Source of the DNA: Pyrobaculum aerophilum str. IM2
Lineage (GTDB): Archaea; Thermoproteota; Thermoprotei; Thermoproteales; Thermoproteaceae
Assembly (NCBI RefSeq): GCF_000007225.1
Contig: NC_003364.1
Span: 2,100,001-2,132,000, forward strand
Reading direction: 5' to 3'
DNA: 32,000 nt
The notes below the pieces were generated by a model that was not told where the DNA came from, did not search any database, and saw only the letters and a list, made by a program, of their open reading frames with translations. Shown piece after piece: positions 7,642 through 24,130 of the stretch (the stretch's first letter is position 1; each line of letters opens with the position of its first letter). A program made the translations under genes and the position numbers.

Positions 7642-8187
7642 TTAACATATCTTTTCTATGTACTTTGAAATGTCGTGTCCCCTTTTCTTAAACTCTCTGA
7701 GATCTTCGTAGCGGCTCCACGGGTAAGAGATCCACACCCACTCCTCTATTCTCTCGGCGTAATAGTCGGGGGTGAGCTGGCTTGTTGTTTTTAAGTGTAG
7801 CACAGCTGTCTTTATTTGGGCCGCGCCTATTAAGTCGAGGAGGTTTTTGGCCAACATTAGCGTGTGTCCCGTGTCCGCCACCTCGTCCACCACAAGTACT
7901 TTCCTATCTCGAATAACCCCTGGCTCTATGCTGTGGTACAACAGGGGCCTCTCAGCCCGCCTCTGTGCCAAGCCCCAGTACTTGACGCCCATGGAGATTA
8001 CGTCGTCAACGCCAAGAACATCGCTTATAATTCTAGCGGGCACTAACCCGCCGCGGGAGATGGCCACAATGACCTCAGGCTTATACCCGTCGCCCTCTAT
8101 CCTCCTAGCCAAAGCCTCGCTTAGAGCTATCCCCTCGGCCCAGGAGATAAACCTGACTTTAACCCCGCCAACTTCAACTATAGCCAT
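7642..8187 (-). CDS. purine (hypoxanthine/guanine-type) phosphoribosyltransferase
   Basis: PRPP-binding motif KVLVVDEVADTGHTL; 181 aa. Confidence 0.8.
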   Translation of the reverse strand: MAIVEVGGVKVRFISWAEGIALSEALARRIEGDGYKPEVIVAISRGGLVPARIISDVLGVDDVISMGVKYWGLAQRRAERPLLYHSIEPGVIRDRKVLVVDEVADTGHTLMLAKNLLDLIGAAQIKTAVLHLKTTSQLTPDYYAERIEEWVWISYPWSRYEDLREFKKRGHDISKYIEKIC

Positions 8188-8234
8188 GTGAATTCATATT
8201 CAGGGAGTTAAAATATACAATTGCGTAGAAATTG

Positions 8235-8954
8235 CTATCCGATTTTAATATAGCGCCCGGAGGCGTTGTAGAGTGGCGTTCCAATTTTTAATTTAGACGT
8301 ATCAACGACCGTATTAATTACAAAGACACAGTTCTTCAAAGTGGGGCCTAGTACCTCGGTTTTCACCCCCACTTCTAACGGCACAACAGATATCCCTCGC
8401 GCGTCGCGGTGTTCAGATTTTATATAGATGCCGTCGGAAGCGAATAAGAAGGCAGAGTGGTTTAGTTCCGCGACTGGTTTACGAACGACGTAAGGCGGCA
8501 GGCTAAAATCATAAATAAAAGATAGGTAGCCAATTCCCCTTTCGGGATAGGCAACTAACACGGCTCGGTACCCATACGCCTCGTCTGTAAATGTCCTTAG
8601 ACCTTTTTTCACGCCACACAGACGTTTGAGGCCTGTTTCAAACGGCGCCTCTGGGTCAGGTTGGCCGGTAAACACCCGGCCTATAAATACAACAGCTGTC
8701 ATATTCCCCACGCGGCCAGCGGTTACGCATTTAAAATCGCTGGCGCTTATAGGCGGCGGCACTTTAATAACACCGCTATACTCACAAGGGCCATATACTA
8801 CTCCAGAAATATTTTCTACAGACATACATGCAACATTAAAATTTACATAACAAATTTTTTCATCCATAAAAAACATATATAAATAGTTAATGAAAAATGA
8901 AATAAAAATTAAAATAAAAAATAAAATTATCACTAATAAAAATAATCTATTCAT
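8235..8954 (-). CDS. N-terminally anchored hypothetical protein
   Basis: 239 aa; extremely A/T-rich 5' end encoding a TM segment (LFLLVIILFFILIFISFFINYLYMFF); no motif. Confidence 0.5.
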   Translation of the reverse strand: MNRLFLLVIILFFILIFISFFINYLYMFFMDEKICYVNFNVACMSVENISGVVYGPCEYSGVIKVPPPISASDFKCVTAGRVGNMTAVVFIGRVFTGQPDPEAPFETGLKRLCGVKKGLRTFTDEAYGYRAVLVAYPERGIGYLSFIYDFSLPPYVVRKPVAELNHSAFLFASDGIYIKSEHRDARGISVVPLEVGVKTEVLGPTLKNCVFVINTVVDTSKLKIGTPLYNASGRYIKIG

Positions 8955-9192
8955 AGTTGTAGAAAGAGGCTAAAACCCATGTGGCGTTTATCTCTACGGC
9001 TTCGGCCTCAACGCCAGCCTTAAGCAAGGCGTTAAGTATAGGCTTAATGTCGGTCTTGCTTATAACACAAGTGAAGTTGACGATGCCGTCATAACAAGTC
9101 AAAGGTTCGGAGGTTTTAATCACGTCGAAATGAGCCAAGGCGGCGATCTTTCCCCTGTGGTTACCGACGTAGTTTATAACTACCCGAGGCAA
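8947..9192 (-). CDS. hypothetical protein
   Basis: 81 aa, TTG start, 8-nt overlap with the downstream ORF; no motif. Confidence 0.3.
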   Translation of the reverse strand: MPRVVINYVGNHRGKIAALAHFDVIKTSEPLTCYDGIVNFTCVISKTDIKPILNALLKAGVEAEAVEINATWVLASFYNYE

Positions 9193-9480
9193 ATGCTCAC
9201 CAGAGCCAGCTTAGGCCAACTGATAAGCGGCTACTGCCACGAACACAGCTACTGACATTATATCTAACCGCCGTTTTCCGATCATATGTATTAAGACAAT
9301 CGGTATTTTTATTTTTTATTTCTACAAATTAATTAATGTAAAGACCGGGGTTATGCGAGGGATTTTCAGCGCCCGCCACTGCTGGGCAGGCTCTCGCCAC
9401 CGCGTCGGCGTGGGTTCAACTCGTCATTCGCACTATTTGCAGTGAGTGTATTTAAATTTTAGGTGTTGTGGACTGTTTAG

Positions 9481-11453
<1,973 letters not shown>

Positions 11454-15900: not shown

Positions 15901-16004
15901 CCGTCCTCGAAAAATTTCTCAGAGGCTAAAAGCCAAGCTTTCCGACCTGGATAATTCAGGAAATAAAGCCGAAAAATTAGCGTTCAAGAATTCTTTCAGA
16001 ACGG
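15901..16004. repeat. ~105-bp dyad-symmetric module, copy C (most degenerate)
   Basis: CCGTCCTCGA-N5-TTCTCAGAG ... CCTGGATAATTCAGG ... TTCAAGAA-N5-TCAGAACGG; same architecture and spacing as copies A and B. Confidence 0.65.
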
Positions 16005-16047: not shown

Positions 16048-16950
16048 TTAAATTAATTCGGAGAACCGCCTCTGCGCCCACAGCGCCAACACTTTCTCCC
16101 TCGGCGCCTCAAAGCCGCACTGCTGACACCTCAGCTTCCTATCCGACAGCTCCCCCATTTCTATCCCACACCGGGGGCACACCGCGGAGTACAGCCTGTC
16201 CTCACGGTACGGCACTCCGTACCATGAGGCCAGCTCTCTAATCCGCCTCCTCAGCCTCTCCGCGTTGAGGCGGATTCCTCTGTCTGAGACCTGGCGGGGG
16301 TCTGGCACGCTTACCACAATCACCGCCTTGTTGCGCCTCGCCTCCATTACTAGCTTCTTCGCCGTTTCATCTTCAAACTGGCGCAAGATGTTTTTCACGC
16401 GTCTGCGGAGCGCCGCTACTCTTTCACAGTGGTCCTCCTCCCCGCTCGCACAGAGGGCCTCAAGGCGGGAGATTTCCCTCTGTATGCGGCCAATTTTCCC
16501 CAAGTCCGGCCTGTAGACGCCTTTTTGCAGTACGCGCTCCCCATCTACAGTCGCCCACACCACGCCGTTGTGTAGAGCGATGACATCAACTGCGGTTAGG
16601 CGGGTAGGCTGGTAGGGCTCCGTCTCTTTGGCGAATACCAGCGCCACGTTAAAGGTGAATAAGTCAGACCGCCCAGTGGGGCCCACCCAGGCGTAGGCCT
16701 CCTCCAGCCGGCCGCCCTCCTTCAGCCTCTGGAGTATCCCCCTCACTTCTGCCCTCCTCAGCCTTATTACAATTGCGCCTTCGCCCTGTCCAATTCTGAT
16801 CTCGCCCCCTTGGAGATCGACAGAGAACTGATCTCCGCGGAGTGCCACCCGCTTGTTGATACCCCCTTGCGCTCCCAGAAACTCCACCAGCTTCTCTGAC
16901 GGAATCTCCTCCACTTTTCTCCGTATAAGCACTGTTCTATACGCCATCAT
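16048..16950 (-). CDS. compact TnpB/IS605-OrfB-like protein with non-canonical RuvC residues
   Basis: LTAVDVIALHNG (RuvC-I-like Asp), helical RRRVKNILRQFEDETAKKLV, ELASWYGVPYREDRLYSAVCPRCG-x13-CQQCG Zn finger in the family-typical position; 300 aa. Confidence 0.6.
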   Translation of the reverse strand: MMAYRTVLIRRKVEEIPSEKLVEFLGAQGGINKRVALRGDQFSVDLQGGEIRIGQGEGAIVIRLRRAEVRGILQRLKEGGRLEEAYAWVGPTGRSDLFTFNVALVFAKETEPYQPTRLTAVDVIALHNGVVWATVDGERVLQKGVYRPDLGKIGRIQREISRLEALCASGEEDHCERVAALRRRVKNILRQFEDETAKKLVMEARRNKAVIVVSVPDPRQVSDRGIRLNAERLRRRIRELASWYGVPYREDRLYSAVCPRCGIEMGELSDRKLRCQQCGFEAPREKVLALWAQRRFSELI

Positions 16951-16998
16951 GACTCTTCCTCCGCACTCCCAATTTTGAACAATTTTTCACCGCATGCT

Positions 16999-17101
16999 TT
17001 CCTGAATCCGGTTCTGAGCGGCGGTTTTTGCGCCTTAGCGTCCTGAAAAATTCAGGAAACAGAGGCGGGAAAAACCGGCTCAGGAGGGGGCTCAGGAGAC
17101 G
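16999..17101. repeat. ~105-bp dyad-symmetric module, copy A
   Basis: TTCCTGAA-N5-TTCTGAG ... CCTGAAAAATTCAGG ... CTCAGGAG-N5-TCAGGAGACG; right arm overlaps the ATPase stop codon (17092-17094). Confidence 0.7.
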
Positions 17102-18582
17102 TCCTCTGGCCGGGCCAGCCGGATGAAGATCGGCGCCCTCCCGCCGAACCGGACAACGGCGTGGCGCTCCCCCGGTAGCGACTCGGTGGCCACCCTCTCC
17201 AGCACGGAGCGGTCTATCTGCACGGCGCGGGACACCCTCTCCAGCTGCTCCGGCGCTATCGCCAGCACGGCCTTGGTGTCCGAGTTGGCGATGATGGTGG
17301 AGAGCGGCCCGAACTCCTGGACGTCCTGGCTTATGGCCACGAGCCTGACCCCGAACTTCCTGAGGCCGCGCCACGCCAGCGCCAGCGCCTCTAAGTTGCG
17401 GAGCAGCAGGTGGGCCTCGTCTATGTAGATCTCCAGCTTCGGCCCGCAGGACGGCCTGGGGCACGCCCGCTTGGCCCACAGCGCGTATGCGAACAGCCAC
17501 GAGACGAGCCTCATGACGGAGGCGGGGCCCTCGTCCCCGTACGTGGTCACCGCCACCGCGCCAGACGTGGCGAGCCCCGCGGGCCTGGCCCGGGCCAGGG
17601 ACTTCAACCGGCCGTAGATGGAGTCGACGGCCATGGCGCTGAGGGGGTCCCGGATCCTCGCGAGCGCGCCGACCAGCCCGGCGAGGTCGGCGGAGCCCCC
17701 GGCCCTCTCCAGGGCGTTGAGGATCACCGTGTAGTGCACGTCGTGCACCGCCACGCCGGCGGCCCTCAGTATGTCCAGGAGGAGGTCGGCGTCTGAGGGG
17801 CCCTCCTCGCCGCTGTCGGCCGAGAATGCCATCTCCGGTATGTGTTTCCTGGCGTCGATCACGGCCGTGGCGACGTCGGCCCAGTGCCCGTGGGGATCTA
17901 TGGCCACCACTAGCCTCCCCAGCCGCCTGGCCTGTGCGGCCTGGGCCTTCGCCCACGTGGTCTTGCCAGATCCCGTCTTGCCGATCACCACGGCGTGGGG
18001 GCTCTCCAGCTGGTAGGGATCCATGCAGACCTCCCTCCCCCTGTCGTCCCAGCCCAGCCTGTACGCAGAGGGGCCGCACTGGAAGGGCAACAGCATGAAG
18101 GCATAGGGGGTGAACTCCGCGAGGTCGAAGGTCAGGGCGTCCACGGTGCTGGGCCTCCCCACGGTGAAGGCTAAGGGCCTCCCGTCCACCACCCCCGCAA
18201 CCGCGAAGGCCTCCTCCCTCAGGTGGACGATCCTGTGCCTCACCGCCGCCACCTCCTCGGCCCGCATCATGCGGACTCGGCTGAGGAGGACCGCCGCCAT
18301 GTGCTCCTGCCGGAGGGCCCGCTTCGTGATCCTCTGCAGGAAGCCCCTGTTGGGCGCCCAGGTCACCAGCGCCCTGCTGACCATCAGCTGGGAGACCTTC
18401 GCGATCGAGTGCACCTCCTCGGGGCGCAGGAGGGCGAAGAGGGAGTCGTTGGCCTCCAGGCCCCGCCCGGCGGCTGGCGTCCCCGCGTCCGACGCCAGGA
18501 GGAGGAGGTAGGCCAGGGCCCCGAGGACGGCGCCGGGGAGGGAGGCGGTGGCGGCGTGCACCTGGGATCGCCTGGCGGGCAT
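17092..18582 (-). CDS. HerA/VirB4-like (DUF87-type) ATPase with N-terminal hydrophobic anchor
   Basis: Walker A GKTGSGKT, AIDPHGHW, Walker B EIYIDEAHLL; N-terminal LPGAVLGALAYLLLLA; alternative start at Met67 (18384) forms a TGATG stop-start overlap with the upstream ORF. Confidence 0.8.
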   Translation of the reverse strand: MPARRSQVHAATASLPGAVLGALAYLLLLASDAGTPAAGRGLEANDSLFALLRPEEVHSIAKVSQLMVSRALVTWAPNRGFLQRITKRALRQEHMAAVLLSRVRMMRAEEVAAVRHRIVHLREEAFAVAGVVDGRPLAFTVGRPSTVDALTFDLAEFTPYAFMLLPFQCGPSAYRLGWDDRGREVCMDPYQLESPHAVVIGKTGSGKTTWAKAQAAQARRLGRLVVAIDPHGHWADVATAVIDARKHIPEMAFSADSGEEGPSDADLLLDILRAAGVAVHDVHYTVILNALERAGGSADLAGLVGALARIRDPLSAMAVDSIYGRLKSLARARPAGLATSGAVAVTTYGDEGPASVMRLVSWLFAYALWAKRACPRPSCGPKLEIYIDEAHLLLRNLEALALAWRGLRKFGVRLVAISQDVQEFGPLSTIIANSDTKAVLAIAPEQLERVSRAVQIDRSVLERVATESLPGERHAVVRFGGRAPIFIRLARPEDVS

Positions 18583-19985
18583 GGGGGCGGGGGCGGATCG
18601 TCCGTCACGTTCGGCGGGGGCGGCGGCGGCGGAGGCGGCCTCTGGATGGCGGGGCGGACGTCGTGGTAGGTCACGCCGCCAGGCACCGCGAGTCCCGCAT
18701 AACTTCTGCTACTCGATATAAACGCGACGTAGTCCACGCTGGCACTGGTTATGCTTTCTCTGTTGTGGTAGCCGAGGTTCTGCACTACGGTTCCCACGAT
18801 GTTGGTGCCCAGGATGTAGAACCGCTCGACCGGGGCCACCACAGTGCCGCCACTGGGGCTGTAGGACCAGTCATAGAGGGCGTTGAACCGCTCCACCTGG
18901 GCGCCGAAGCTGAGGTAGAAGTACCTGTAGCTATCGGGCCACACCGCGTAGGCGTTGGGCACCACCGAGTCGGGAACCTGTAGCGGGCCGACGGGCGTCT
19001 CAATGGTGATGGGCGTGGAGCCGAAGGAGATCTCGGCCGCTGGCACGAGGGTGATGTCCTGAGAGACGTAAGCGAGACCTTGCTCTATGGTCTCCCGGCC
19101 AGCCGCCAGCCAGACGGTGGGCCAGCTGTTGGCCACAATGCCGATCCACCTGAAGAACGCCCTGGCTATGTCCACGTCAGAACGGAGTGGGCTGACAGCA
19201 CTCCCCGGGTTGGCGAGCTCCACCCCCTCAGTTCCGGGGACGACCGTCCCGCTCTGCCCCATGAACGTCAGGTTGTACTTGGTGCTGAGTCTCTCCTTGG
19301 CTATGCCACCGAGCGGGACGTACCAGCGACCGTCAGCGCCGCCATTGCGGCTCACTGTCACGCTCCCGACGAGGGCCTCCGTAGAGCCCTGTGGCGTGGC
19401 CACCACGTACGCCACGGCGAAGCCGTAGCACGTATCGCTATGCTTCTTCCACACGTGCCCTACAACGACGAGATCGCCAGCTGGCCACCAGGCGCCTACG
19501 TCCTCTGCCACTACTTCAACCAAGTAGCTGTTTGCCCACGACGCCCTCCCGCCGCCAGCCCTCTGCAGGTGCTCTGGCGTGAGGTATTCATCAATCCTGG
19601 TGGCGTTCTGCGGGACGCAGGTCTCCGGGTCGTACCCCCTGTAGACGCGCCACTCGCTTCCCACCCTGGCAAGGCTGTACAGGCCGTACCTCACCGTGGG
19701 CACCGTGTTCTTGGGGGCCCCCACGGCCATGACCACCCACTGTGGCGGGAGGACGCGGGCCTTCATGTCAAACCTGAAGGGTATGCCGATGGAGGACAGT
19801 CCCAGGCCCTGAACGCTGTCTGGCGCGCCGTACCAGGACTCCGCCCTGTTGCCCGCAGTCCTCCTGAACTCCGACTGCTCGAAGGCGGCCAGGAGGCCCG
19901 CCGGCCCGGCCCTCCCCCAGGCGATCCAGGCGGCCGGGCTACCCCTTACCGCGTACCAGACGAAGTGGAAGTACTCCTCCCTCAT
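18384..19985 (-). CDS. large beta-rich hypothetical protein with C-terminal poly-proline tract
   Basis: 533 aa; N-x-S/T sequons; PPPPPPPPPNVTDDPPPPPCPP; no signal peptide of its own; in frame with the upstream ORF across a TAG. Confidence 0.6.
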   Translation of the reverse strand: MREEYFHFVWYAVRGSPAAWIAWGRAGPAGLLAAFEQSEFRRTAGNRAESWYGAPDSVQGLGLSSIGIPFRFDMKARVLPPQWVVMAVGAPKNTVPTVRYGLYSLARVGSEWRVYRGYDPETCVPQNATRIDEYLTPEHLQRAGGGRASWANSYLVEVVAEDVGAWWPAGDLVVVGHVWKKHSDTCYGFAVAYVVATPQGSTEALVGSVTVSRNGGADGRWYVPLGGIAKERLSTKYNLTFMGQSGTVVPGTEGVELANPGSAVSPLRSDVDIARAFFRWIGIVANSWPTVWLAAGRETIEQGLAYVSQDITLVPAAEISFGSTPITIETPVGPLQVPDSVVPNAYAVWPDSYRYFYLSFGAQVERFNALYDWSYSPSGGTVVAPVERFYILGTNIVGTVVQNLGYHNRESITSASVDYVAFISSSRSYAGLAVPGGVTYHDVRPAIQRPPPPPPPPPNVTDDPPPPPCPPGDPRCTPPPPPSPAPSSGPWPTSSSWRRTRGRQPPGGAWRPTTPSSPSCAPRRCTRSRRSPS

Positions 19986-20033
19986 CAGAATCCCGTCGGT
20001 GGTGCCGTCTGTGTTGGTGTTGTACTGTCCCGG

Positions 20034-20825
20034 CTACAGGCCGCTCATCTGGAGGAACCTGAGACTGCCGCCAGCACCCTCCAGGTACTCGTGGGTCACC
20101 GTCATCTCGTAGCTACCGAACTGGTCGACAGACGGCACGTTCTCCCAGTACTGGGCGCCGAAGTCGCCCGGCTCCACCGTCTCCTTCCCGTACCACGGCA
20201 CCGTCAGAGTGCACGCGTACTCCCCGCTGTCCGCGGTGTCGAGGATCAGCAGGTCGCAGGACCTCTCGCCAGACTGCCAGCCCTCGCCCCTCACGTCCTT
20301 GGCCGTGGTGACCGTGACGGTGGTGCTACCGACGAGTTCACCGCTCGTCTTGTTGTAGTACTCGCACCTTATCACGTACTCGGTCACTGTGGCCGTCCAC
20401 TGTCTCGGCGCGGAGAACCGCACGGACGCCTGCACCCGGTACTCGGTCTTCAGCGGGTTGGGATCGCCCCACTGGGCCGCGTAGGGCTCCGAGCCGCGGG
20501 CCTCCTGCGCTTTATCAGTCCTCGGGAAGCCGGTCTCCACCCTGTAGCTGAACACCAGCCCCATCTCGAAGTCGAAGGCGTTGCGGGTGACAGTCCGCGA
20601 CGTCTGAGACGCCACGTACGTCCTCAGCGATATTTCCGGATCGGCGGGAGAGGGACAGAAGCCTTCAATAACTTTAGGATCGTTCATATCTTTGCGCTCT
20701 CCACTTATTGTTATACTATCCGGATCTACTTTGAAGAATCCGCCTTTGTCGCTGTTGTCGCCACCGTACGCCAGCAACGCCAGTAGCGCCAGGACTGCCA
20801 GCACCGCTGGCCAGGGGTTCCGCAT
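20034..20825 (-). CDS. secreted hypothetical protein
   Basis: 263 aa; signal-like MRNPWPAVLAVLALLALLAYGG; TATA-like TAAAGTTTT about 15-25 nt upstream of the ATG. Confidence 0.6.
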   Translation of the reverse strand: MRNPWPAVLAVLALLALLAYGGDNSDKGGFFKVDPDSITISGERKDMNDPKVIEGFCPSPADPEISLRTYVASQTSRTVTRNAFDFEMGLVFSYRVETGFPRTDKAQEARGSEPYAAQWGDPNPLKTEYRVQASVRFSAPRQWTATVTEYVIRCEYYNKTSGELVGSTTVTVTTAKDVRGEGWQSGERSCDLLILDTADSGEYACTLTVPWYGKETVEPGDFGAQYWENVPSVDQFGSYEMTVTHEYLEGAGGSLRFLQMSGL

Positions 20826-20883
20826 GAGGGGGAGGGGGAAAAACTTTAGTGTTGATTGTGGGGTGGGAGGAGGGGTGGCAACG

Positions 20884-21045
20884 CTATCTGCGCCTGGCGA
20901 GGCGCCCCGCCGCCAGGCCCGCGGCTAGGGCGGCCGCGGCCAGCGCGGCCGCCGCCGTCCAGTCCACCTCCCTCACCCTCACCGTCTCGGTGGCCGTGGC
21001 GACGCTGGTGACGGTCTCAGTGACTGTGGCGGTCTCCGTGGCGGT
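20884..21045 (-). other. in-frame continuation after TAG: Thr-rich stalk plus C-terminal TM anchor
   Basis: My translation: TATETATVTETVTSVATATETVRVREVDWTAAAALAAAALAAGLAAGRLARRR*, in the same frame as ORF 21046-21861. Confidence 0.5.
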
Positions 21046-21861
21046 CTACCTCACGGTGACTGTTGTGGTGGCCACGGCCGTTGCCGTCACGGTTCTGGTC
21101 ACTGTGGTGGTGACGTTGACGTAGACGGGCCTCACCTCCTCCCTTATGGCGACGCCCCTCGGGCCGGGGTAGCTGAAGTTCGGCCACTCAACGTCGGCGC
21201 TGTAGATGAGCTCGGCCCTCCGGACGCCGTCGCCGAAGAGGGTCGCGAAGGTGGAGCCATTTTTGAGTCTCACTAAATACGCGCATTCGTTCCACCACAG
21301 GGCGTAGTCGTAGTCTCCAGTAGTGCCATGTATTTTTCTCATATACTCCCACCTCTCCATAAACGAGCTACCCGTCACGATACAGGGAGTCCTCTTCACC
21401 ACCTCCCCGGCCCTGTAAACGTCCAGTCTCCTCCCGTCAAAGGCGGCAATGCCGACTCTGGTGCCGTTTTTGTAGACGTAGAGGACGACGTCCCTGCCCC
21501 GCGTGGAGTTGAGGAGATCGGCGCGGCTCACCCTGGCGCCCGGGAACAGCTCTTGCAGCTTCTGCAGGATCCTGTGCACGAGCAACGCCGCCGCCACCTC
21601 CCTCTCGAGCATCACGCCACTTGTGGCGAAGAGGGGCCCGTGCACCGGCCAGCTGCCCGCCAGGTAGGCCGCCAGGGGCTCCACAAAGGCGTCTGGAGGC
21701 CGCACCGGTAGCCACATCTGCACCTTGGGCTCGGTCGGTAGTGAATCCCACCAGTAGCCCGGCCTGAAGTTGCCCTCCCCGTCCACCACCAGGTGGTATG
21801 TGCCGTAGTCCAGCTCGGCCCTGTCCCACAGCGACACGGGCCAGAACCAGGTGGCGCTCAC
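21046..21861 (-). CDS. hypothetical surface protein segment (GTG start, ends at in-frame TAG)
   Basis: 271 aa; several N-x-S/T sequons; C-terminal T/V-rich repeat VNVTTTVTRTVTATAVATTTVTVR; no signal peptide of its own. Confidence 0.55.
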   Translation of the reverse strand: MSATWFWPVSLWDRAELDYGTYHLVVDGEGNFRPGYWWDSLPTEPKVQMWLPVRPPDAFVEPLAAYLAGSWPVHGPLFATSGVMLEREVAAALLVHRILQKLQELFPGARVSRADLLNSTRGRDVVLYVYKNGTRVGIAAFDGRRLDVYRAGEVVKRTPCIVTGSSFMERWEYMRKIHGTTGDYDYALWWNECAYLVRLKNGSTFATLFGDGVRRAELIYSADVEWPNFSYPGPRGVAIREEVRPVYVNVTTTVTRTVTATAVATTTVTVR

Positions 21862-21969
21862 GACGCACGAGATCCCCTCTACGCAGAACGGCCGGGCGCC
21901 GCTGGCCGGGCTGGTCGTGTAGAGTCCGGTCTTCCAGGAGGTGAGGGCGCCGTGGACGACCCTGGCCTG

Positions 21970-22704
21970 TCACTCGTAGCTGGTGCTGCCGTTGCCCGGC
22001 ATGACGAACAGGTAGTACAGCACGTAGTCGGCCTCCAGGGACACGGAGAAGTAGTCGGTGTAGGCCACCACGGCGCGTAGCGTGCCGTTGGCCCCCAGCC
22101 ATATGAGGGCCAGGCGGCCCGGTCTCTTGAAGCGGAAGGCGAAGGTGGCGTAGCCGTAGTGGAGCCTCTGGGTGCCGATCACTGTCACCGAGCCGAGGAA
22201 TACCTGCCTGACGTCGTGCCAGCTGACGCAGGCCTCGGGCTCCGGCTGGGCGGTCAGCGGCCTGTCCCAGTCCGCGGGGTAGCCGACCAGAACCACCTGG
22301 GCCCTCTTGCAGGCGAAGAGGGATATCGGGAAGTCCAGACTGCCGTAGTAGTAGTGGACGACGCCCGGATCCGTGAACCACGTGACGTTCACGAAGCCGA
22401 TGCGCGCGGAGCCCCGCTCGAAGGGCGGGCTCTCCCCCAGCCTGAGGAGCCTGCCAAGGTAGCCGCTGACGGGCGGCCTTCCCACCCAGAAGAGGTAGAC
22501 GGGCTCTGAGGCGTTGAGAACCAGCCGGTCTCCGGGGACGACCGCGGCCGTGAAGTTGACCCAGCCGCCTGGCGTGTACAGGGGGCCCTCGGACACGTAC
22601 ACCAGGAGCCGGTAGTCCCAGTACTCCAGCTCCAGCCCCAGCGCGGTTGCGGCCAGCAGTAGCGCCACCAGGGGGACTGCCCTCACCATGGGGAACGGCC
22701 CCAA
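21970..22704 (-). CDS. secreted hypothetical protein (probable true start ATG at 22689)
   Basis: Signal-like MVRAVPLVALLLAATALG from the ATG at 22689; the TATA-like box sits 23 nt upstream of that ATG but abuts the TTG at 22704. Confidence 0.65.
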   Translation of the reverse strand: MGPFPMVRAVPLVALLLAATALGLELEYWDYRLLVYVSEGPLYTPGGWVNFTAAVVPGDRLVLNASEPVYLFWVGRPPVSGYLGRLLRLGESPPFERGSARIGFVNVTWFTDPGVVHYYYGSLDFPISLFACKRAQVVLVGYPADWDRPLTAQPEPEACVSWHDVRQVFLGSVTVIGTQRLHYGYATFAFRFKRPGRLALIWLGANGTLRAVVAYTDYFSVSLEADYVLYYLFVMPGNGSTSYE

Positions 22705-22705
22705 G

Positions 22706-22718
22706 CTATAATTTAAAG
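22706..22718 (-). promoter_or_regulatory. TATA-like box (CTTTAAATTATAG on minus strand)
   Basis: Position relative to the ATG at 22689 fits a leaderless transcript. Confidence 0.45.
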
Positions 22719-22728
22719 ATTTAGCACG

Positions 22729-22835
22729 CCGTCCTGAGATGTCTCCTGAGTCGCCAGTTTTCCAGCGGACAGTTCCTGAAAAATTCAGGAACTCCCGCCG
22801 AATTTTTCGTCGATTCAGGAACTAACTCAGGACGG
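22729..22835. repeat. ~105-bp dyad-symmetric module, copy B (best preserved)
   Basis: Left arm CCGTCCTGAGATGTCTCCTGAGTC and right arm GATTCAGGAACTAACTCAGGACGG are reverse complements at 19/24; each lies 22 nt from the central GTTCCTGAA-AAA-TTCAGGAAC. Confidence 0.8.
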
Positions 22836-22853
22836 CGGGAGGGGGTAGGGGGA

Positions 22854-23009
22854 TTATGTCGACACGAGTAGCGCCACCGGCTCTCCCTCTCTGTCGGTCA
22901 CCAAAATCGCCACCTCACCGTTCTTCTTGTACTCGGCGACTGTGTCTAAGGGCGCCAGCGCAAAGCACCTGTCGGCGGTTTCTATCAAAATCTTCCAGAG
23001 GCGTACCAC
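22854..23009 (-). CDS. possible small ORF or gene fragment (CBS-like pattern)
   Basis: Frame open 23069-22854 with no ATG; first GTG at 23009 gives 51 aa ending ...LDTVAEYKKNGEVAILVTDREGEPVALLVST*; below the ORF-track size cutoff. Confidence 0.2.
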   Translation of the reverse strand: MVRLWKILIETADRCFALAPLDTVAEYKKNGEVAILVTDREGEPVALLVST

Positions 23010-23332
23010 CGTCCACTGGGCGTCTTCTGGGCCTTCACACAGCCTTATCTTTACCAGCCTGGCGTTGCGCTAGTGAATCAATATCTTAATTCGCACTGGG
23101 GCGCCCGTGGCCATGCTTCGAGTTAATAGGCCGAGGTGGTACGTAGACGGCTACTACGTCGAGAGGGACGGCCCCCGCCCCGTCGCGGCTGTAGCAAAAA
23201 GCGTTGCGGCCACATGGCGCGCCCTCTTGGATCCTTCGTCCATCGCCATGTACTCTACCATGGGCGGGCACATGTCGACAGAGCCCCCTTTAGTTGTTTT
23301 TAAACCCCCAGTCATACTTATAATAGTTATAC

Positions 23333-23773
23333 GTGTACGTGGTCTACCTCCTCTACGCCGAGCTCGGGGGGAGGGTCGTGCGCTACGTCGGCTCCGGGAA
23401 GTGGCCGGGCCGGCTGAGGAGCCACGTAAGGGGGCACTCCTCCCTGGCCAAGCGCGGGGGGAGGCCGCTCTTCGCCGTGGTGTTAGCGTTTACTGAGGAT
23501 CGGGAGACGGCCTACCGCATGGAGGCCTATTTCCAGCGCCTTCTGGGGCACGAGACGGGCCGCCGTGTCCGCAAGAGGCCCCTCGCCGCCAGGTTGCCGA
23601 GGAGGTTCAGGCCAGTGAGATTCGGCGGCCTCTTGGTCTTCGTCCCCGACGGGGAGGGGGCAATCCCCGCGCGGCGGGGGATCAGCCCTCCAATGGCCGA
23701 AAGCCCGCCACCCGCAGGCCAGGGAGCCACCACAAGCAAGGAGCCAGGCCCCGGTGGCCCGGGACAGGCCTAG
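23333..23773 (+). CDS. GIY-YIG domain protein with Arg/Pro-rich tail
   Basis: N-terminus YVVYLLYAELGGRVVRYVGSGKWPGRLRSHVRGH ... ETAYRMEAYFQRL fits the GIY-x10-YVG...R..H...E pattern; A/T box TTTTTTAAA ~30 nt upstream of the GTG. Confidence 0.55.
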   Translation: MYVVYLLYAELGGRVVRYVGSGKWPGRLRSHVRGHSSLAKRGGRPLFAVVLAFTEDRETAYRMEAYFQRLLGHETGRRVRKRPLAARLPRRFRPVRFGGLLVFVPDGEGAIPARRGISPPMAESPPPAGQGATTSKEPGPGGPGQA

Positions 23774-23992
23774 TGGGCCTCTGTGGCCGTGGTAGCCACC
23801 GCGGCCAGGCGGACGGGCCTTGCACGGCCTGACCACAGGCCCGGAGGGGGTGAACTCGACGAACTCTATGTGGGGCCAGGCGGAGTACATCACCACGCGG
23901 CCGCCGGACTTCATGCGGGACACCCACGGCCTCACCTGCCCAGAGGCCTCGTAGACGTGGACCACTTGCCACCTGACCCTCGCCACCGCCAC
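23483..23992 (-). CDS. doubtful ORF antisense to the GIY-YIG tail
   Basis: GTG start; only the first ~60 aa look protein-like; lies in GC-rich DNA where long spurious ORFs are frequent. Confidence 0.2.
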   Translation of the reverse strand: MAVARVRWQVVHVYEASGQVRPWVSRMKSGGRVVMYSAWPHIEFVEFTPSGPVVRPCKARPPGRGGYHGHRGPLGLSRATGAWLLACGGSLACGWRAFGHWRADPPPRGDCPLPVGDEDQEAAESHWPEPPRQPGGEGPLADTAARLVPQKALEIGLHAVGRLPILSKR

Positions 23993-24130
23993 ATTCTCTT
24001 AACGTGGCAACAACGCTTTTTGCCTCAACTGCAGGCGTGTCGCCTGCCCCTCGGAAAGAGATTCAGGGCGGTACATATGTCGATATGGCATACTTTAATC
24101 AAAATTTCTGGATGTCGCGAAAACTAGCTC

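Follow-up and report, generated by a model that had tools for sequence, protein, structure and literature searches.

The closest described parallels to a coding sequence broken by an in-frame stop codon are nonsense-interrupted genes (unitary pseudogenes), the archaeal recoding of UAG as pyrrolysine (Pyl) and of UGA as selenocysteine (Sec), and the split alpha-L-fucosidase gene fucA1 of Saccharolobus solfataricus, which is expressed by programmed -1 frameshifting (PMC1616953, PMC8211752). Here we describe a locus of Pyrobaculum aerophilum IM2 that shares features with each of them. It lies in a stretch of 32,000 nucleotides (contig NC_003364.1, positions 2,100,001 to 2,132,000), referred to below as the window and numbered from its first letter. 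On the minus strand of the window, an open reading frame (ORF) of 263 codons, PAE3535, ends with a TAG codon, and an ORF of 533 codons, PAE3533, follows in the same frame after 16 further sense codons. We put the probability at about 80% that the two ORFs represent a gene inactivated recently by a nonsense mutation, which belongs to a disrupted pair in an acquired GC-rich island undergoing decay, and thus an ordinary young pseudogene.

As in unitary pseudogenes, two same-frame ORFs are separated by one stop, the homologues are continuous, the codons between the ORFs are conserved, the downstream piece is without start signals, and the same operon carries further lesions. The locus differs from them in that the lesion appears very young, with no decay at conserved downstream positions, in that it lies in a foreign GC-rich island, and in that the partner gene carries three alternative nonsense alleles in near-identical strains, which is more than neutral decay predicts. 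With Pyl and Sec recoding it has in common an in-frame UAG or UGA inside an otherwise continuous coding sequence. However, Pyl and Sec stops are conserved in orthologues, occupy catalytic positions and are served by dedicated machinery (pylTSBCD for Pyl; SelB and a selenocysteine insertion sequence (SECIS) element for Sec), whereas the stops described here are absent from relatives, fall at variable positions of surface proteins and are polymorphic, and TAG is the main terminator of the neighbouring genes. The fucA1 gene is, like ours, a crenarchaeal gene annotated as two ORFs with single homologues, and it sets a precedent for considering interrupted genes as recoding candidates; there, the reading frame shifts at a slippery heptamer and experiments have demonstrated expression of the full-length product, whereas the present locus has a plain stop with no recognisable signal and is known from sequence alone.

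The proteins themselves resemble two families of the archaeal 'dark matter islands', arCOG09761 and arCOG07691, which comprise large secreted proteins with a Pyrobaculum-specific expansion (Makarova et al. 2014, PMC4158269). The likeness, for which only the published one-line descriptions of these families were available, consists in large, beta-rich, secreted proteins that have no Pfam domain, are found in Pyrobaculum and Thermoproteus only, and are encoded in a foreign island together with a membrane-anchored partner.

The split gene and its homologues

The split gene consists of the following parts:

20839..20850, minus strand: TATA-like, AT-rich box ACTAAAGTTTTT, in the spacer of 58 nt that precedes ATG 20825.
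20034..20825, minus strand: 5' piece of the split gene, PAE3535, 263 codons; signal peptide MRNPWPAVLAVLALLALLAYG and N-terminal beta-rich domain; ends at the TAG.
20034..20036, minus strand: in-frame TAG nonsense codon that splits the gene; sense codons in homologues.
19986..20033, minus strand: '16-codon linker' PGQYNTNTDGTTDGIL; no spacer, but part of the conserved coding sequence of the ancestral gene.
18585..19985, minus strand: 3' piece; the part of PAE3533 with homology to the family, ending with the poly-proline stretch; ATG 19985 encodes a family-internal Met, and there is no signal peptide.
18384..18584, minus strand: last ~66 codons of the 533-aa ORF; a low-complexity, Arg/Ser/Pro-rich read-on overlapping the next gene (ATPase ORF).

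The 263-codon ORF runs from 20825 to 20034 with its stop at 20036-20034, the 16 sense codons occupy 20033-19986, and the 533-codon ORF runs from 19985 to 18384; the start coordinates of both ORFs leave a remainder of 2 on division by 3, which places them in one frame. On the minus strand, the DNA of the junction reads ATG AGC GGC CTG TAG CCG GGA CAG TAC AAC ACC AAC ACA GAC GGC ACC ACC GAC GGG ATT CTG ATG AGG GAG GAG, which translates as ..MSGL, the stop, and PGQYNTNTDGTTDGILMREE... Across the junction, the conceptual joined product reads FLQMSGL-X-PGQYNTNTDGTTDGILMR, where X is the position of the stop. The two ORFs correspond exactly to the IM2 proteins PAE3535 and PAE3533. Taken alone, this geometry is weak evidence and within chance, as its probability is approximately 0.23 (a frame prior of 1/3 multiplied by 0.70, the probability that 16 codons contain no stop given the stop-codon frequency of the island); judged by the alignments, it is homology that makes the case for one gene.

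A search with the conceptually fused sequence retrieved single long proteins that span both pieces, namely P0002, P0003, P0004 (partial) and P0005. P0002 has 1106 aa (60% identity, 96% coverage) and P0005, from a Thermoproteus metagenome-assembled genome (MAG), has 763 aa (38% identity, 97% coverage); in P0003/L001, from a P. aerophilum MAG, the counterpart of the split gene is intact from MRPTHAL. Identities of the fused window sequence were 59-62% with P0002-4 and 38-41% with P0005, in alignments that cover 89-97% of its length. When 1.84 billion cluster representatives were searched exhaustively with HMMER, only about 10 relatives emerged, including P0027 (1141 aa), P0028 and P0029. The junction is uninterrupted in every more distant homologue that spans it (P0002, P0003/L001, P0005, P0027, P0028, P0029 and L009), and contig L010 agrees. 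The linker region belongs to the best conserved stretches of the family (consensus MSGLxPGQYNQNxDGTTDKIYMKKEYFDFVW, with several invariant columns) and is embedded in the wider block ..LRFxxMSGL[x]PGQYNxNxDGTTDxIxMxxEYFxFVW..; its GC content by codon position, 0.50/0.50/0.81, matches that of the flanking ORF bodies. Since the 16 linker codons are conserved coding sequence in every relative, PAE3535, which aligns with residues 1-258 of the intact P0002, and PAE3533 are on the evidence of homology two halves of one ancestral gene of ~750-810 codons.

The position of the stop itself is variable in the family. The relatives have the codons GCG (Ala; L001 and L002) or ATA (Ile; L003), or the residues Thr (P0004 and P0027), Lys (P0028) or Met (P0029). 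Thus, the stop is absent from all 7 more distant relatives that span the site and is confined to a clone group with 99.5-99.9% identity.

The first-pass annotation, made from the letters of the window, had described the TAG-ended ORF, the 16 stop-free codons and ATG 19985 as lying in one frame, and had taken the two ORFs for pieces of one gene in which the upstream piece holds the only export signal. The sequence confirmed the geometry, and the fusion of homologues that it had proposed as a check was borne out by the continuous relatives and the conserved linker. The export signal was likewise found where it had been placed, as a signal peptide on the 263-aa ORF; the 533-aa piece had no N-terminal signal peptide. 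A conserved separate start for the 533-aa protein or a promoter between the pieces had been named as signs of independent genes. The Met of ATG 19985 proved to be internal to the family and is Ile or Val in P0027-29, and no TATA-like or Shine-Dalgarno-like motif was present within 70 nt upstream of this ATG. The TATA-like box at 20839..20850 is the presumed promoter of the whole split gene.

The window protein shares with the family the signal peptide, the blocks MSGLxPGxYN.., CxxFAVAYVV and GIPFRF, and the C-terminal poly-proline stretch. As far as the sequence matches indicate, this is a family of large secreted proteins of Thermoproteaceae, confined to Pyrobaculum and Thermoproteus. At the 3' end, P0005 terminates soon past the poly-proline stretch, and the other homologues extend into a ~400-aa domain that is missing from the window protein. 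In the overlap at 18584-18384, the GC content at third codon positions (GC3) is 0.95-1.0 in the ATPase frame, and the values for the frame of the 533-aa ORF are 0.38-0.70/0.95-1.0/0.73-0.85; the Arg/Ser/Pro-rich last ~66 codons of this ORF are probably not its native C-terminus.

AlphaFold models of P0002 and P0005, which were built from shallow alignments, are confident only for the N-terminal beta domain and partly for a second domain. Residues 30-242 of P0002, predicted with local distance difference test scores (pLDDT) of 83-95, are equivalent to the N-terminal domain of PAE3535. Ala259 of P0002, which corresponds to the stop, falls within the low-confidence segment 243-309, and the junction is modelled with low confidence in both proteins. 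Fold comparison of the models gave no significant match, and searches of Pfam, PHROGs and NCBIfam and a sequence-profile search of the PDB gave no match for either large protein of the locus (the split-gene product and that of the partner gene described below). The sequence features indicate that the split-gene product is a beta-rich surface protein that is secreted and N-glycosylated, and that its partner is anchored in the membrane. A viral origin was rejected, as tblastn found no relatives of the split-gene protein or of the ATPase in a phage collection and there were none in IMG/VR.

Two further observations concern the same coding region. The long homologues have their final ~90 residues (profile positions 1010-1097), a segment missing from the window protein, in common with the C-termini of many other proteins of ~900-1000 aa (P0033-P0046), and this segment looks like a shared C-terminal module. 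Opposite the split gene, an antisense ORF of 568 aa (19080-20786, plus strand) appears to be a by-product of the high GC content, where long stop-free frames arise easily.

The partner gene and stop alleles among close strains

The gene directly upstream of the split gene is interrupted as well:

20884..22689, minus strand: partner gene (PAE3540, PAE3538 and a 54-codon tail), directly upstream of the split gene; encodes a secreted glycoprotein of ~600 aa.

The partner protein is made up of a 244-aa ORF, the next 36 codons, a 271-aa ORF and the 54-codon tail. Its features are a signal peptide, N-glycosylation sequons, a Thr/Val-rich stalk (VYVNVTxTVT...), a C-terminal transmembrane helix and an RRR tail. 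In IM2, the gene is cut by TGA 21972-21970, between the 244-aa and the 271-aa ORFs, and by TAG 21048-21046, between the 271-aa ORF and the tail, which ends at 20884. Both junctions are in frame, and the observation of the first-pass annotation that all three junctions between adjacent pieces keep the frame was therefore correct. A TATA-like box is found at 22717-22707, upstream of the partner-gene ATG 22689, and no TATA-like or Shine-Dalgarno-like motif was seen ahead of GTG 21861. In L002, L003, L009 and L010 the partner gene is continuous. Because it always lies directly upstream of the counterpart of the split gene, the conserved unit is, from the gene order, a two-gene cassette. A homology search with a trimmed partner protein (the Thr/Ala-rich tail confounded the full-length search) matched only its own cluster, and for the cassette of large surface glycoproteins there were no relatives outside Pyrobaculum and Thermoproteus among the 1.84 billion cluster representatives. 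For the annotation, this means that PAE3535 + PAE3533 and PAE3540 + PAE3538 (with the unannotated 54-codon tail) are to be treated as two disrupted genes and not as four or five hypothetical proteins.

To compare the stops among close strains, we used IM2 and eight further independent assemblies in which the island occupies the same place on the chromosome and the DNA is 99.5-99.9% identical (NCBI MAGs, a sediment metagenome contig from the European Nucleotide Archive, and Logan assemblies). The alleles were as follows:

Codon 21972, partner gene: TGA in IM2, L008 and L013; AGA (Arg) in L004-7, L011 and L012.
Codon 21843, partner gene: TGA in L007 and L012; TGG in all others.
Codon 21048, partner gene: TAG in IM2, L004-6 and L011; GAG (Glu) in L007, L008, L012 and L013.
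Codon 20036, split gene: TAG in all assemblies covering the site (six independent ones besides IM2).

At all these sites the outgroups have sense codons. With respect to the three nonsense sites of the partner gene there are four haplotypes, none of which is free of stops; three of the four were recovered from at least two independent datasets apiece. The 21972 and 21048 alleles occur in all four combinations, and recombination or recurrent mutation must therefore have taken place. Both partner-gene junctions of IM2 are recent point mutations of an ordinary kind that vary among strains.

In the split gene, the members of the clade differ by 5 non-synonymous and 0 synonymous changes and by a 3-nt indel in the poly-proline stretch, compared with 8-9 non-synonymous and 2 synonymous differences in the whole island and ~7 and 5 in the flanks. 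The polymorphism of the split gene fits relaxed constraint. Family-invariant positions are kept to a similar extent on both sides of the stop: 85 of 93 downstream and 55 of 59 upstream in the window protein, and 85 of 90 and 55 of 60, respectively, in P0002. As the invariant residues downstream of the stop are kept, the lesion must be young relative to the divergence of the family.

Only 3.4% of the possible point changes in the two genes create stops, yet nonsense changes account for 3 of 9 polymorphic sites when both genes are taken together (p = 0.003) and for 3 of 5 when the partner gene is taken alone (p = 0.0004); in the flanks, they account for none of the ~12 coding differences. Two of the three nonsense sites led to the locus being flagged, and without them the proportion is 1 of 4, which is not significant (p estimated at ~0.13). 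The phenomenon as such is ordinary; what is mildly unusual is the occurrence of alternative nonsense alleles of the partner gene at three different sites in four haplotypes.

A second, paralogous or orthologous cassette was observed at a different locus, beside PaRep2a/b genes, in a P. aerophilum MAG (L001, positions 7905-9736, GCA_026414425). Its identity to the window cassette is 55-58% for the counterpart of the split gene and ~40-43% for the partner. There, a frameshift divides the partner gene in two (433 + 191 aa), and the other gene is intact, although the start assigned by the gene caller is ~78 codons too far downstream.

Inactivation and its alternatives

If the locus is a young pseudogene, the course of events would be simple. 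TAG 20036 arose by point mutation from a sense codon at a variable position, as the codons of the relatives show. Ribosomes most likely terminate at this TAG and release only the signal-peptide-bearing N-terminal domain, and the 533 codons, which have no promoter, ribosome-binding motif, conserved start or export signal, would probably remain untranslated or be translated in traces only. These codons would still be open since the lesion is young and stops are seldom generated in GC-rich DNA. The adjacent partner gene would have been struck likewise by nonsense substitutions. Most likely, then, the locus yields at most a truncated secreted 263-aa N-terminal domain. Further lesions of the region comprise the 3' end of the 533-aa ORF, which runs out of frame into the ATPase gene, a G at 23317 present in IM2 only, and a TnpB remnant; at its different locus, the L001 copy of the partner gene is frameshifted.

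Several facts weigh against inactivation. No intact allele was found in protein or metagenome collections (JGI metagenomes, scanned with a DNA pattern of the junction in which the stop codon was left free and with a protein pattern), and all members of the island lineage that were sampled have TAG 20036. Long-term decay is not apparent in the 533-codon remainder, which deviates at only 8 of 93 family-invariant positions, much as the intact P0002 does at 5 of 90. The polymorphism counts are small, and the literature contains no mention of PAE3533, PAE3535, PAE3538 or PAE3540. A TAG fixed in the lineage and an undecayed remainder fit a young lesion inherited by shared descent, but they would also be compatible with continued selection on the downstream part.

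It is also conceivable that the pieces are joined in translation, as the first-pass annotation had suggested. A near-cognate or suppressor tRNA would then decode the UAG at 20036 in some events, in a programmed or leaky manner, to give a secreted protein of ~812 aa, and the UGA and UAG of the partner gene would be decoded likewise. This would agree with the in-frame junction, the fully open downstream ORF, the TAG fixed in all sampled close strains, the family-invariant residues kept downstream of the stop, and the fact that the downstream piece can reach the surface only if it is joined to the upstream signal peptide. The first-pass annotation had also calculated a joint chance of 1/27 for three in-frame junctions. 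This argument does not discriminate, since nonsense substitutions, unlike indels, keep the frame: three of them leave three in-frame junctions, which are thus their expected mark and not evidence for recoding. The stop occurs in no homologue beyond the clone group, and the partner stops are polymorphic against sense codons, with a different stop in another haplotype, which is the pattern of mutations and not of signals. The three stops differ and share no context (TAG-C, TAG-A and TGA-C, with unrelated flanks), and the fold of 121 nt around and downstream of the TAG was no better than that of shuffled sequences (z = -0.72), arguing against a stimulatory RNA structure. The split-gene polymorphisms are exclusively non-synonymous. 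Of the 26 window ORFs that reach 100 aa or more, 12 end in TAG, including those of an XPD-type helicase, a HerA-like ATPase and an M48 peptidase; it is the commonest genuine terminator and therefore not reassigned. There were no tRNA genes or Rfam families within the 32-kb window. Pyrrolysine machinery is not known in Thermoproteales. We found nothing in the literature on readthrough in Pyrobaculum, and for Archaea a 2021 review (PMC8211752) gives Sec and Pyl as the only demonstrated cases of stop-codon readthrough, so that a case here would be the first beyond these two. There was no positive evidence for readthrough at TAG 20036, and we consider it improbable, although leakiness at a low level is conceivable. 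A related idea is that P. aerophilum, a hyperthermophilic crenarchaeon, decodes UAG and UGA at ordinary sense-like positions appreciably and independently of Sec and Pyl; nonsense alleles of the glycoprotein pair would then still be expressed in part, the four stop haplotypes serving as a population-level dimmer or on-off switch for a selected surface structure. We keep this in view, as distinctly unlikely, because the TAG is fixed, the 533 codons are undecayed, and nonsense changes are over-represented among the few polymorphisms. We regard as very unlikely a functional fission into the secreted 263-aa domain and a 533-aa protein made by reinitiation at ATG 19985, 48 nt downstream. The stop does lie just past a confidently predicted, self-contained N-terminal beta domain, in a segment modelled with low confidence, and the ATG follows closely in the same frame. 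However, the 533-aa piece is without a signal peptide though its homologous region is extracellular with N-glycosylation sequons, its ATG is a non-conserved internal residue with no promoter or Shine-Dalgarno motif, and the split, which occurs in no homologue, cuts one of the most conserved blocks of the family.

A different proposal refines inactivation instead of replacing it, namely that the nonsense alleles were selected because the loss of the pair pays, for example if the proteins serve as a virus receptor or are a costly or toxic foreign product. Three nonsense sites in a partner gene of ~1.8 kb among genomes that differ by 0.1-0.5%, with every haplotype hit and all four combinations of the 21972 and 21048 alleles in existence, are suggestive of this, as is the excess of nonsense changes over the flanks, and selection would explain the independent knockout of the partner gene in each lineage. 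On the other hand, the excess loses significance without the two sites that caused the locus to be flagged, the counts are small, metagenome assemblies can be strain mosaics, and neutral decay of the partner is also expected after the death of the split gene. Selection for loss of the gene pair is thus plausible as a refinement and is not a finding; on balance, we hold it to be possible but doubtful. If the knockouts of the partner gene do reflect selection, the cassette would mark a surface structure whose loss is favoured, e.g. a virus receptor. The idea that the gene is really intact and that the reference contains a sequencing or assembly error has only the general possibility of errors in a Sanger genome of 2002 to recommend it. 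It is effectively refuted by the six other independent assemblies with TAG 20036 and by the same products, of 533/532 aa and 263/256 aa, having been called in at least five sources.

The island and its other genes

The probable pseudogene pair is located in a GC-rich island of ~7 kb (window positions 16950-24130), which has a GC content of 63-69%, compared with ~50% in the flanks; the split gene has a GC3 of 82%, and the adjoining ATPase gene one of 94-97%. The island occupies the same site in all eight related assemblies. From its composition it is foreign and was presumably acquired horizontally; no flanking direct repeats or tRNA target were recognised at its borders. It also holds a GIY-YIG ORF and the two features below, and a PaRep2b gene lies next door.

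17092..18582, minus strand: ATPase ORF, the downstream neighbour of the split gene; N-terminal transmembrane helix LPGAVLGALAYLLLLAS; weak similarity to VirB4, TraD and Ced-type ATPases.
16048-16950, minus strand: TnpB remnant, a 300-aa ORF that matches only the C-terminal TnpB/Cas12f-like part (profile positions 183-384 of 389).

The ATPase ORF matched the Pfam families TrwB_AAD_bind and DUF87 barely above the cut-offs and scored 15-39 bits with the NCBIfam models of VirB4, TraD, CedB and CedD, whose cut-offs are 325-700. A membrane-anchored ATPase with such weak VirB4/TraD/Ced-type similarity recalls the Ced/Ted DNA-import and conjugation-type VirB4 systems of Crenarchaeota (PMC9905601), but these NCBIfam matches are far below the cut-offs, and no TedA/TedC-like, VirB6/CedA or CedA1 pilin genes were recognisable in the island. 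Gene callers differ as to the start of the ORF (496, 440, 430 or 428 aa); the GC content by codon position favours the long form from 18582, and the ATPase coding signature begins at this ATG. We rejected the possibility that the split-gene protein gains the transmembrane helix of the ATPase frame by a frameshift in the poly-proline stretch, as that frame runs stop-free into the full ATPase. There was no ATPase homologue in L001-L003, L009 or L010; going by these contigs, the ATPase is probably not a conserved partner of the cassette, and its neighbourhood is probably incidental. The TnpB remnant, from the extent of its match, is a shortened element of the IS200/IS605 type at the edge of the island.

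Two minor observations were made in the same region. At position 23317, IM2 has an extra G that is missing in all five other aligned strains. It sits at the 3' end of a plus-strand ORF of 69-71 aa, which in IM2 extends to 129 aa (23107-23496) and overlaps the GIY-YIG ORF (23333-23773), and possibly represents a further lesion specific to IM2. Three copies of the palindromic motif CCTGAAAAATTCAGGAA are present: downstream of the TnpB remnant (15946-15973), between the ATPase and TnpB ORFs (17042-17069), and ~90 nt upstream of the operon start ATG 22689 (22775-22802). This motif could be an operator, a terminator or the end of a mobile element.

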